From NCBI GenBank assembly GCA_964016885.1, contig OZ024743.1, forward strand, positions 17,236,001-17,300,000: a stretch of DNA of 64,000 nt, written 5' to 3'. The notes below the pieces were generated by a model. That model saw nothing but the letters and a program-made list of their open reading frames with translations, searched no databases and had not been told where the DNA came from. This document shows positions 5,350-56,093 of this stretch, one piece after another (within the stretch, counting starts at the first letter, position 1; every line of letters starts with the position of its first letter). The stretch comes from Eledone cirrhosa. Taxonomy: Eukaryota. The position numbers were made by a program, and so were the translations under genes.

Positions 5350-5372
5350 TTATTACCATCATTATTTTCACG

Positions 5373-5526
5373 TATCAGTAGAGGGTCGGACGCCATGCTT
5401 TGACGCATAGTGTTACGGCCCTCGCCATTCTAAGTTCAAATCCCGTCGATGTAAACTTTGCCTTTCATCCTTACGTATTCGATAATGCACTGGATAATTG
5501 CTGGCCTTGTGCCAAACTTAGAAACA
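5373..5526 (+). mobile_element. tRNA-type SINE with 12-bp TSD
   Basis: B-box agttcaaatcc, core actttgcctttcatccttacg, tail ggccttgtgcc...agaaaca. TSD attattttcacg at 5361-5372 and 5527-5538. Confidence 0.9.
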
Positions 5527-7351
5527 ATTATTTTCACGAGGTAAACTCTCTATATGAATTATACACCTATTAAATCATATAACAGATGTGACGTAATCCC
5601 TAATCGACCGTAACTATTTCCGTAATTTATAGATTGTTCAGGATGTATAAAACATCGAAAGGGGATAAATCCTAAACTCTGATCTAATCCATTATTTTTT
5701 AACAATTTATAAAATGCATTGACAATGAACTTGGTGAAAGCATCATATATATTTTGATCATGTTATAAAGGGTCAGTAAAGCATACACATTTTGAACGCT
5801 GGAGTGTCAAATAATTTTCAGATAGATATAGGAAAAACGGAGATGATATACATATATATATATATATATGTTGTAGCTCTGATTCACATGAATCATCGAG
5901 CGCTTGCCACACATATCGGACGTTGATTTTCGTTAATTCCTGAGCTGAAATACGATTCTCGCTAATTTATATTTGTACATATATATATATATATATATAT
6001 ATATATATATATATATATATATATATAAATATATGTGTGTATCATATGTATATCATATGTATATGTATATGTATATATATATATATATATATATATATAT
6101 ATATGTGTGTGTGTGTGTGTGTGTGTGTGTGTGTGTGTGTGTGCGTACATCTTCATCACTAGGATAGTTATTCTTTTTTATTGAGCGTTAATGTTTTCGT
6201 TGAAAAAAGAAAATTCCTAAAGTTTCATCATCTCTGAATTTGGATATATTTTCTGTTACCTTTTTGGCATGATCCCATAGAACTTCTTTGGTTTCAATTG
6301 CAATATTTGTGTCCTTTGAACAGATAAACTCCATCAATTTGAAGTCAATATATATAACAAGCTTATATGAAATCCGTATTCTATTATATCACATTTTCTT
6401 TTATGTGTCTGAAAACTGTAGTCTCTTTTATTATATCTGCAGTTCAGGATCGAAGTTGATGTATGTACACTGATTGACCTCTGTATAGCTTTGTTAGTTA
6501 ATAGCTTGCAATTGGTCAGAGATTATTCTTGAAATGTCTAGCAGAAAATTACTCATATTGAACACTCAATCTCCATTCTCATTTACACGCTTCTCATCAT
6601 AGATCCGATCCTCTTTAATATACATCATCAATCTAACGTATATAACTGCAAATGATAACGGTATATTACTTAAAAATAATCCACTTTAGCAACGTATTTG
6701 GTAGTATCTTATTTAAAACCCCTTCTTACTTTTTGCAATATCTCCCCGGTATATGTGTACCTGTGTAGCGTGTCCTTTCTGCTTATAAATTGTTTTTTTC
6801 AAATTTAGTTACTGATACTATTTCGTAGTAAATGTGCTTATACCAAAGCACATTCTTCAAAAGCTGCACCCACGCACCTTAGTATTATAAATCTTCATCG
6901 CAGAGATATGGCTCATAATTTTATATCGATTCATATCTCTAATGTTTTTAGAGTAAATGCTAAAATATTTATGCCTAACTACAAGGTTTCATAACAGTAA
7001 ACATTGTCAAAAAAGAAACTAATTTACTTTTTTTATCGAAATTGAAAATATATTATATACAACACGACGTCATTTTTATCCAAAATTATATCTATGATAT
7101 ACTCAATCTTCTTATCTGAGGACGGGCATTTGTTTTACATTCACATACTCACACCCACATACACACCACTATAAATATATATATATAATATTAAGGATAC
7201 TACCTATGGTTATGTATATAATAAACTTTTTATAGTTATGTATATTTTAAACCTTAAACAGTGAAGGTCAATAATTTATTACTACCTTATTACCAGTAAG
7301 ATAAATAGCTCCATATAATAACATCAGTTGTTCTACAGAGCAGTTATATAG

Positions 7352-7883
7352 AATTCACAAGAATCAAAGCTATGTTCAAAGCATTTATTCACTTACAATT
7401 GTTTCAGCCAAACCTAGGCTTGGTGTCTTCGGAGCATTTTTCAATGTTTGTACATATAATTGACCTCCTTTCCAACGCAAGAGACATACAGATACATATA
7501 TATATATTGATGTACAGTGGAGTGACATATATTATACTATACTATTTTTGTACAGCAATTCAAATTCAAGATAAAAATCAAAATCAAAATAAAAATTAAA
7601 ATAAAAATTAAAATACATTCGGCAGATAACACAGATAATGCAGGAGGATAGTTTGATAGTCAGATCTAGTAGGTAGTGTATGCATTAGTTACACATGGAG
7701 CATGCAAGTGTGTCTCATTTATACGATTAATGGGTGGCAATAACTCTATGTCTCTTGCGTTGGAAAGGAGGTCAATTATATGTACAAACATTACAAAATG
7801 CTCCGAAGACCTCAAACCTAGGTTTGGATGAAACAATTGTAAGTGAATAAATGCTTTGAACATAGCTTTGATTCTTGTGAATT
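7352..7883. repeat. Inverted repeat, ~137 bp arms (7352-7488 / 7747-7883) with ~258 bp spacer
   Basis: Opposite-strand ORFs give nearly the same peptide MFKAFIHLQLF...LLSNARDI. Flanked by (TA)n. Penelope pLTR or MITE origin is inference. Confidence 0.9.
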
Positions 7884-54500: not shown

Positions 54501-54631
54501 CACCTCAAATTCATTCATATGTATATCACAAGTTTATCAGAACAATACTAATCACTAAAATTAACTGCGTCACGAATATTGTGTTTTAAAATTTGACATT
54601 TGTTTCATTTATTTCTTTAATATGAAATAAC

Positions 54632-54786
54632 TGTTTCTACTTTAGGCACAAGACCAGTGCATCGACCCCGTAAGGATGAAAGGCAAAGTCAACCTCGGCG
54701 GGATTTGAACTCAGATCGTAAAGGGACGTAACTATGCTGGAAAGCATGGCGTCCGACCCTCTACCGATACTGTCAATCCACCGCCT
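54632..54786 (-). mobile_element. tRNA-type SINE with internal deletions and 16-bp TSD
   Basis: Family sequence. TSD tttaatatgaaataac at 54616-54631 and 54787-54802. Confidence 0.9.
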
Positions 54787-56093
54787 TTTAATATGAAATA
54801 ACATAAATACGTTATGGCTGTAACTAACACTACGATAAACGCATTTATAAATGTGGGGTATGTTATATTTTAATAGGGGATCTCCATCGAATAATTCCTT
54901 CTCACATATTACAACCGTTAGTTTTGAACGTATTTATATGACCCATTAAATATTCAGTCACGTATCGTACATTGTCACTGAATGTATTTACCATATTGCA
55001 TGTTGAAATGGATATCAAATATATTCCACCGAAAGATTGAAATGAATGCATTTACCACGATGATTATATTTGAGTTGGGTGTACTCGTGAGTCATGTTAA
55101 TGTGCGTATCATTGTTTTCAAGGTGAATATACTATCCACTAGCAGATGCCATTACAACGTGTCTCTGTCACATTTAAATTCCACATTCTGAAGTAAGGTG
55201 AGCAGTAGATGTCACACACTCAGACAAAAAGCCATCAGGTGAGGCATTATGTCATCCTAAGTTCGTTCCGTTTCCTGGAGAGAAATCAATATGGCAACAG
55301 GAATCGTCATCTATCAAGCGCTACTATTTTATATAATCTATAAGAGAGAAATCCAGCGCAATGTAGTTTGCATTGGAGGATTATATTTTGACACATCTGC
55401 TTCCTCCATATACCTATTCGGCACGAATGTTTGTTGTGTGCTAGACTATGATGAACGTAGTACATACCTGATTAATTATCCTCACCACATTCTTTTTCAA
55501 TAGGCACCTCCGTTCGTTAAATAACATCATCGACGTAGTCTCAGATTACCGGAATGTCTTACATAAAGAGGTGCATATTTGAAATTATCCATTCTCACCA
55601 TCTATAATTTCAAGCTATATAGAAAAACAATATTTAGGAAATGTATTAGGAAGAATATATTAACCAAGAACATCAATAATGTTAATAGGTTCATTTATTA
55701 AATTATTCGTCACAGCACTGAGTAAGTGATCCTCCAGTAAGTTAAAAATTAATTGTCATGTTATATTACAATTTCTTTCCTTCGATATTGGATATTTTAT
55801 GACATTAAGTGAATGATCGGTCGATATGTCTATTATTCCATCAATCAGGGTGATCATTAAATTAATGATAATTTGTTTATGCATATTCTTTGATCTAATA
55901 TTATATGGATGTTTAAACACATTCGCAGACATACAAGCAATCGTACCTACATATCTGTATATAAATATATATATATATATATATATATATATATATATAT
56001 ATATATATATATATATACGCACATACACACACACACGCACACACCCACACACACACACACACACATATATATATATATATATATATATATATA

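Follow-up and report, generated by a model that had tools for sequence, protein, structure and literature searches.

A candidate LINE-SINE partnership in the L1 group: an abundant SINE of Eledone cirrhosa shares its 3′ tail and insertion site with (ATT)n-inserting LINEs

The window analyzed here is a 64 kb stretch of the Eledone cirrhosa genome (assembly GCA_964016885.1, contig OZ024743.1, positions 17,236,001 to 17,300,000). Its minus strand carries three long elements that are richer in GC, the long interspersed elements (LINEs) A, B and C, and the window also contains nine pieces of a short interspersed element (SINE). An earlier, sequence-only reading proposed that the LINEs, assigned to the Tx1 clade, and the SINE share a 3′-terminal hairpin with a CUUGU loop and form a LINE-SINE partnership. 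The LINE features are as follows, in whole-window coordinates and with motifs read on the element strand.

21294..27113, minus strand: LINE A, full length, with 5′ untranslated region (UTR), open reading frame 1 (ORF1), ORF2 in pieces (stops, frameshifts) and 3′ UTR
21307..21319, minus strand: LINE A 3′ hairpin GGCC-CTTGT-GGCC (loop 21311-21315), followed by AATAAA and GAAATC
29823..35683, minus strand: LINE B, full length, ORFs broken
29835..29847, minus strand: LINE B 3′ hairpin AACC-CTTGT-GGTT (loop 29839-29843)
35521..35531, minus strand: SINE-type hairpin, GGC-CTTGT-GCC, present within the LINE B 5′ UTR
35684..35722, minus strand: (ATT)13 between the LINE C 3′ end and the LINE B 5′ end (target/duplication)
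35723..41703, minus strand: LINE C, full length, ORFs broken, (ATT)n at either end
35735..35747, minus strand: LINE C 3′ hairpin AACC-CTTGT-GGTT (loop 35739-35743)
27811..29792, plus strand: LINE fragment bearing a reverse transcriptase (RT) domain and ending in (AAT)n (5′ limit approximate), not the SINE partner

LINE A is located in the (ATT)n behind the SINE at 27139-27316, and has (ATT)n at either end. LINE B also has (ATT)n at both ends, and is inserted antisense in the (AAT)n tail of the RT-bearing fragment, which we take to be R4/Dong-like. LINE C is arranged head-to-tail with LINE B. Comparison of B with C (29787-35683 versus 35687-41703) showed that ORF2 and the 3′ UTR are 91% identical and that the 5′ UTR and ORF1 are unrelated, a contrast that is, on this alignment, one of 5′ module swapping. 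The SINE copies are as follows.

5373..5526, plus strand: SINE, 5′-truncated, loop 5506, with a 12-nt duplication, ATTATTTTCACG, at 5361-5372 and 5527-5538
11785..11967, minus strand: SINE, full length (183 nt), hairpin 11798-11808, loop 11805, no duplication found
15813..15995, minus strand: SINE, full length, loop 15833, 13-nt duplication, in tandem with the 16026..16208 copy
16026..16208, minus strand: SINE, full length, loop 16046, 19-nt duplication
17331..17450, plus strand: SINE, 5′-truncated, hairpin decayed, with a 10-nt duplication, ATTATTTTAC
27139..27316, minus strand: SINE, loop 27159, whose downstream (ATT)n received LINE A
54632..54784, minus strand: SINE with an internal deletion and a 16-nt duplication starting GTTAT, GTTATTTCATATTAAA on either side
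5188..5287, plus strand: older long-type SINE fragment, tail decayed

The hairpin motifs described in the sequence-only reading are exact at the ends of LINEs A, B and C and of the SINE, and their coordinates were verified on the element strand. Five SINE copies end in GGC-CTTGT-GCC plus 13 nt, LINE A in its hairpin plus 13 nt, and LINEs B and C in theirs plus 12 nt. This places the loop 17 nt from the junction in A and 16 nt in B, C and the SINE, within the 16-17 nt given before. The stem or loop is decayed in the short-type SINE copies at 17331, 54632-54784 and 57990. CTTGT loops with a stem of at least 3 bp number 11 in the window: eight at element ends, one in the LINE B 5′ UTR and two unrelated. 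The string CCTTGTG occurs 13 times, versus 6.1 expected, and none of 100 shuffles reached this count.

The LINE ORFs in the window are broken, but many intact young copies are present elsewhere in the 3.0 Gb genome. An intact C-type family (locus L123) encodes an ORF1 of 696 aa and an ORF2 of 1139 aa, and an intact A-type family (locus L487) an ORF1 of 642 aa and an ORF2 of 1150 aa. ORF2 of L123 contains Exo_endo_phos, RVT_1 and zf-RVT domains, which are also found in the ORF2 pieces of the window. In similarity searches ORF2 scored 182 bits (E 1e-52) with human L1 ORF2p, 79 bits (E 1e-21) with R2, and 320-345 bits with four proteins named YTX2/TX1; the nearest named homolog is from Argonauta hians (74%). 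LINEs A, B and C belong to the L1 group. In an RT tree of 48 rows, which held no mammalian L1 row, a 99/97 split separates the lineage from CR1 and RTE. Together with the Argonauta protein it forms its own 100/98 branch, sister to unnamed relatives. That branch and the named Tx1 clade share an open fork (96/89), and the branch is not nested in the named vertebrate Tx1 elements. A large unnamed sister lineage with about 50% RT identity (P0002-P0083, 1145-1160 aa) is present in public assemblies.

A gag-like CCHC knuckle in ORF1 is a feature of the Tx1 clade, and the ORF1 of the A, B, C and (ATCT)n families contains such a knuckle, CX2CX4HX4C, although it was not called by Pfam. Target-sequence preference, another Tx1-clade trait, is also present, in one clade for (ATT)n and in another for (ATCT)n. 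The earlier assignment to Tx1 is likely, but the tree leaves the fork with named Tx1 open. A named Tx1 RT used as query gave 138 matches in this genome, and the 15 inspected (10 of the top family and the 5 lowest rows) all end in a hairpin-type motif.

The LINE-end pattern has 19,502 exact matches in the genome. Two target clades were distinguished, the (ATT)n families and a sister clade whose ends and insertion targets are both (ATCT)n. By hand count the (ATCT)n type makes up about 21 of the first 100 LINE ends in the list, so this clade is not rare. Its families (L146, L210-L239, L478, L480, L482) pile up in each other's tails, and no SINE partner for it was seen. In all LINE families seen, AATAAA or a close variant of it comes after the motif, and GAAA comes next. 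Animal L1 relatives normally rely on a poly(A) tail. No poly(A) was present in the LINE ends printed or among 165 SINE ends, and the LINE and SINE insertions seen here lack the tail that marks a poly(A)-dependent system of the L1-Alu type.

The 5′ junctions of the LINEs also lie at (ATT)n. The 5′ end was visible in 18/19 young C-type loci, and all 18 stand behind (ATT)6 or more; among 5′-truncated B copies with a visible flank, 6/7 adjoin (ATT)n. The wider boundary set, with 67 junctions of which many have no called duplication, is noisy, and weight is therefore placed on these two sets. A run of nine full-length young LINEs, head to tail, with a 2.1-kb 5′ fragment, was seen at G000:C1:441.085-441.145 Mb (L364 and L121-L125). 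Six of its spacers, and the left flank, are one 51-nt imperfect (ATT)n, and two are shorter versions of it; the array arose either by unequal exchange or by successive insertions whose duplication was very long. L1-group LINEs frequently lie in antisense orientation within (AAT)n tails of R4/Dong-like elements, as at 29793-29822 in the window (many of L001-L030), and the two families use one microsatellite from opposite strands.

The SINE is 183 nt long and non-coding, and occurs in short and long types. At least 154,856 exact tails were counted, in agreement with the abundance claimed for it earlier. Box-like A and B motifs are visible in its head, as judged against the box consensus, and ARAGORN and Rfam gave no tRNA match. 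An older SINE family (L256, L163, L208) has a similar head and core, and a different, longer tail.

The 3′ ends of four SINE tails were aligned, anchored at the 3′ end, with sampled LINE ends, and scored against 500 shuffles. LINEs were sampled from 540 kb of evenly spaced DNA and by targeted searches, which gave six LINE ends from outside the L1 group. The SINE tails matched all eight ends of the L1-group lineage (z 2.6-7.1), with 30-40 nt shared. They did not exceed z 2.0 with two CR1 ends, three RTE ends and one R4/Dong-like end, nor with the end of a distant L1-group element that terminates in poly(A). For the long SINEs the best matches are to A-type ends, over about 40 nt (z 5.8-7.1).

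SINE insertion shows the same target. Duplications of at least 8 nt flank 45/52 full-length copies, in a set enriched for young copies, and 38/45 start with ATTAT (null 6.7%). A stricter test of 171 junctions gave 77 duplications with a median of 16 nt (null 2.7%); their pure-target 5′ copy starts with ATTAT in 58/77, with the target consensus Y/ATTAT (slash, junction). Seven copies have an identical non-ATTAT start on both sides, and the text after the junction is therefore of target origin. The terminal attat quoted in the sequence-only reading is mostly target-site duplication and not tail, standing on both sides of the 54632 copy (GTTATTTCATATTAAA) and of the 5373 copy (ATTATTTTCACG). Counts of what follows the SINE are four copies genome-wide for ATCTATCT and 46/154 sampled ends for ATTATTAT; the background counts in the 540 kb of evenly spaced DNA are 135 and 324, respectively. 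Sites of the (ATCT)n clade are thus hardly ever used by the SINE. For a possible RNA-templated correction of the first target bases, the tally was 9 versus 3 of 15 differing heads, several being register artefacts.

An (ATT)n tail carried by the element itself was considered, and is mostly rejected for the SINE by the target-side duplications. For LINEs of full length, some of the 5′ (ATT)n may have arrived with the RNA; one copy (L489) has six ATT units 5′ and two 3′.

The lineage-specific homology of the 3′ tail (8/8 ends, versus 0/6 outside the L1 group), together with the matching insertion signature, supports the proposed partnership, and on these sequence comparisons the SINE is very probably mobilized by the L1-group lineage. 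No other LINE clade among the families sampled matches the SINE tail better or over a longer stretch, and the hairpin is conserved across the subfamilies sampled. Several observations speak against this conclusion or limit it. The SINE tail scores equally well with (ATCT)n and (ATT)n families, and tail likeness alone therefore cannot pick the partner. The comparison outside the L1 group covers only six LINE ends. SINE subtypes have median divergences of 0.9% and 4.1% (n = 18 and 20), and B/C LINE ends diverge by 0-18% (n = 13), so that the ages overlap, but a CR1 family is young too and these small, motif-selected samples do not discriminate.

We hypothesize that the SINE, sharing both tail and ATTAT site with the (ATT)n families, is copied by their ORF2 protein through a predicted hairpin of 3 bp whose loop is CUUGU, with reverse transcription starting 16-17 nt downstream; on balance we favor this reading. 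The endonuclease would nick the bottom strand at 5′-ATAAT/R, and ORF2 protein would bind the hairpin. The freed 3′ end would pair with AUUAU of a read-through RNA just past GAAA-(N)-C/A, reverse transcription would start 16-17 nt downstream of the loop, and a second nick would follow about 16 nt on. The hairpin would thereby set the register, so that any poly(A) arising from the LINE AATAAA would be skipped. The (ATCT)n clade, with a nearly identical hairpin, would not serve the SINE because primer-RNA pairing is also needed. New duplications would recreate the target, and so give rise to tandem SINEs (15813/16026) and LINE arrays. By template switching, the SINE may have acquired its tail from a family of the A type; a middle segment may later have been lost, turning the long into the short type.

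The rival that survives best accepts the partnership, but has ORF2 protein read the linear CCUUGUG..GAAA, or only the AUUAU primer match, the stem being a by-product of descent or, in the LINEs, of constraint around AATAAA. A family-level alignment of 15 ends, whose rows are related, bears on this point. The inner three pairs are paired in 45/45 cells, versus 17-62% in slid registers, and both changes in the inner stem preserve pairing. Pair 2 is C-G in 11 ends (LINEs) and G-C in 4 (SINE), and pair 3 is G-C in 13 and A-U in 2. Pairing is thus kept, as the sequence-only reading had said of its stem covariation, but the GG-CC to AA-TT change on which it relied is one event of transitions. The better compensatory change, which it overlooked, is that of pair 2. 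In the first 100 listed LINE ends the third pair is formed in 95 (48 G-C, 46 A-U and 1 G-U; hand count).

The (ATCT)n clade bears on the rival in two ways. Several of its families have CCTGT, CTAGT, CTGGT, CTCGT or TTTAT as loop with the stem held, which speaks against a linear signal. The CTTGT loop, earlier said to be invariant, is constant in the SINE and in the (ATT)n families but not in these. On the side of the rival, it is the target match and not the hairpin that separates the two clades, and CCTTGTG is unchanged between the SINE and the (ATT)n LINEs. The 7-nt spacer changes its letters among SINE subtypes and keeps its length. The SINE has no AATAAA, yet retains hairpin and spacing, which speaks against polyadenylation as the only constraint.

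A series of observations weighs against the favored reading, and the marginal stability, the competing folds in the SINE and the small number of compensatory events also favor the linear rival. The loop variation in the (ATCT)n clade belongs to the series. The fourth pair holds in only 7/15 family ends and 69/100 listed LINE ends, and the conserved stem is therefore 3 bp. Such a stem has an energy of about -3 kcal/mol. The covariation score (0.41 versus 0.15 shuffled) comes from related rows and two events, and the observed number of pairs with a double change was reached in 96/500 shuffles. G-C to A-U is a matter of two transitions in an AT-rich genome, and the change of pair 2 between SINE and LINEs could just as well reflect one pair lost symmetrically. 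Folding of the 70-nt ends does not surpass that of shuffled sequences (LINEs, z 0.03 to -1.35; SINE, +0.6). The pairing probability of the hairpin is 0.6-1.0 in LINE ends; in the SINE it is 0.00-0.07 in 9/9 folds of one set, and ranges from 0 to 1.0 in a second set, depending on the stretch folded, because the upstream sequence competes. Distant L1-group relatives (25-30% identity) show no such 3′ end; by eye, none of 9 inspected among 34 metagenome loci, 7 of which extend to or close to the ORF2 end, has the motif, and one ends in poly(A). A search of viral contigs returned nothing, and an Atlas search returned only unnamed endonuclease-RT clusters.

Two further sets concern change within the SINE. 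In the first 100 copies of long SINEs, pair 2 is G-C in 85, G-U in 6 and broken in 9, with no double change (hand count), as expected of decay after insertion. Contigs of X1, X5 and X6 compared with the SINE listed no hairpin change, but an adjacent variant of 67/110 copies was also missed, so that this comparison carries no information. A structured 3′ signal, as first proposed, is favored by the inner pairs, but the case for it is weaker than was claimed, with three conserved pairs, two events, unremarkable folds and variable pairing in the SINE. Granted the partnership, we consider recognition of the hairpin as a structure fairly likely, and the linear rival rather unlikely.

Other paired motifs occur in the LINEs. 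The SINE-type hairpin GGC-CTTGT-GCC of the LINE B 5′ UTR lies shortly 5′ of ORF1 (35505-35560, minus strand), is exact in 5/8 other B-type heads printed, and has strong hairpins as counterparts at the matching place in A (26945-27010) and C (41500-41580). It could bring both RNA ends to ORF2 protein, or control ORF1 translation. A second 3′ UTR motif, CCC-TATT-GGGG, lies at about 21453-21463, 29956-29966 and 35858-35868 (minus strand). Most families of either target clade have it, some in variant form, and it is absent from the SINE tail.

A second rival is that the SINE is moved by another LINE, and that the shared tail is a relic. The foremost candidate is a CR1-type family that is young, retains intact frames of 945 aa, ends in (ATT)n and has 2,706 exact ends; a family outside the sample, which was confined to the evenly spaced DNA and the targeted searches, would be another. 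The CR1 tail does not align with that of the SINE (z -0.9 to 0.5), and its repeat is 3′ only: among 30 loci, none of the 24 visible 5′ junctions had (ATT)n or an ATTAT-led duplication, by eye. The seven SINE copies with equal non-ATTAT starts on both sides, which indicate target origin, also speak against this rival. RTE families end in (GAT)n and R4/Dong-like elements in (AAT)n. The CR1-(ATT)n family, the second CR1, the three RTE families and the R4/Dong-like family are rejected as partner on tail and insertion signature, and we judge this rival improbable. Chance likeness of two short, A-rich ends, suggested by a match that is short (30-40 nt) and needs gaps, is highly improbable, and is already largely refuted by the alignment and duplication data: in each of the 32 comparisons of SINE and lineage ends, the score was attained by only 0 to 11 of 500 shuffles, and spacing and target also agree.

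The hairpin reading can be extended, tentatively, to a two-key rule. The hairpin would recruit ORF2 protein and set the start, and the match between primer and RNA would pick between the sister clades, steering more than 150,000 copies to ATTAT. Under this rule, which we hold to be possible but somewhat short of probable, the system would be the first animal case of stringent recognition in the L1 group with a tail-sharing SINE. The rule would also have the (ATCT)n-clade ORF2 serve a SINE RNA ending in AUCUAUCU.

Published systems are compared here on the available portions of the papers cited. For L2, CR1 and RTE it is standard that LINE and SINE have a stem-loop tail in common (PMC4176376, PMC4824008, PMC11481361). 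ZfL2 and UnaL2 resemble the present system in having a stem-loop near the 3′ end and a short repeat at the priming site, and the mechanism above is modeled on L2 LINEs (PMC4176376). Bivalve SINE partners of CR1, CR1-Zenon, L2 and Nimb share homology of 35-61 bp, a similar length (PMC11481361). Unlike in the stringent L2, CR1 and RTE pairs, the LINE clade here is another one, the terminal repeat is largely target, and the stem is much shorter.

Within the L1 group, stem-loop tails common to LINE and SINE are described for L1-clade elements of grasses and Chlamydomonas (PMC3472496). In the pairs ZmSINE2/ZmSINE3 with LINE1-1_ZM and SINEX-3 with L1-1_CR, a tRNA SINE has a structured 3′ end of ~50 nt, with compensatory changes, in common with an L1-clade LINE (PMC3472496, PMC3747384); ours resembles them in the 3′ end that an L1-group LINE and a SINE share. 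They have stronger hairpins (-10.8 to -17.7 kcal/mol), and in the available text of these papers are not described as microsatellite-targeting (PMC3472496, PMC3747384). SINEU of crocodilians was tied to Tx1-Mar by a common target, with tandem insertions around the duplication (PMC4494074); our SINE likewise shares its target with a target-specific L1-group LINE, and tandem insertions occur here too. SINEU differs in its snRNA heads and poly(A), and the 3′ end of SINEU-1 matched no LINE in the account available; here the tail is shared, poly(A) is absent and the target is a microsatellite motif (PMC4494074). Kibi, Koshi and the crocodilian (TTCC)n/(TTTC)n Tx1 families are also L1-group LINEs inserting into simple repeats (PMC4494074). 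Unlike theirs, the targets here are (ATT)n and (ATCT)n, and the RT is on its own branch.

The SINE may be one of the octopus tRNA SINEs OK, OR1 and OR2 (cited as Ohshima and Okada 1994), or a relative, as judged by host and not by sequence; no partner LINE is given for these in the available text of the papers (PMC4824008, PMC4758252). A 2026 octopus repeat annotation reports active L1-Tx1 families and mostly unclassified SINEs, a partner being unmentioned in the portion available (PMC13282606). The accessible parts of PMC4758252, PMC5786205 and PMC3531059 describe no such pair, and among the 58 pairs tabulated in PMC3747384, as available, no SINE of an animal carries an L1 or Tx1 tail. Our literature search found no animal L1/Tx1-SINE pair with a shared tail; Repbase, Dfam, supplements and subscription papers lay outside it, and prior annotation may exist. 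The claim of a rarely reported pairing thus stands for animal pairs that share a tail, and gives way where L1 tails in grasses and an alga, and a Tx1-SINE assignment by target, are concerned. What is unexpected here is the L1-type clade in an animal host, plus a natural two-clade control; shared-tail pairing itself is already known.

Ancestral stringency of the L1 group with later relaxation is an open proposal based on plants and an alga (PMC3472496, PMC4176376). With its young intact ORFs, its SINE that shares the LINE tail and its two target clades, this genome is a ready test of it, and the sister clades are a built-in control that separates RNA recognition from target priming. The partnership would name the motor of one of the genome's most abundant SINEs, and would explain its clustering and tandems at (ATT)n. 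Targeted insertion might also profit from a tail that is short and portable, paired with an enzyme specific for a microsatellite.

Apart from these elements, the window contains one direct repeat of 1.3 kb (99.6%), another of 0.5 kb (92%), and repeats in inverted orientation of 150 and 52 bp; the repeats are located at 58511-61561, 61994-63101, 7345-7890 and 10277-10565.

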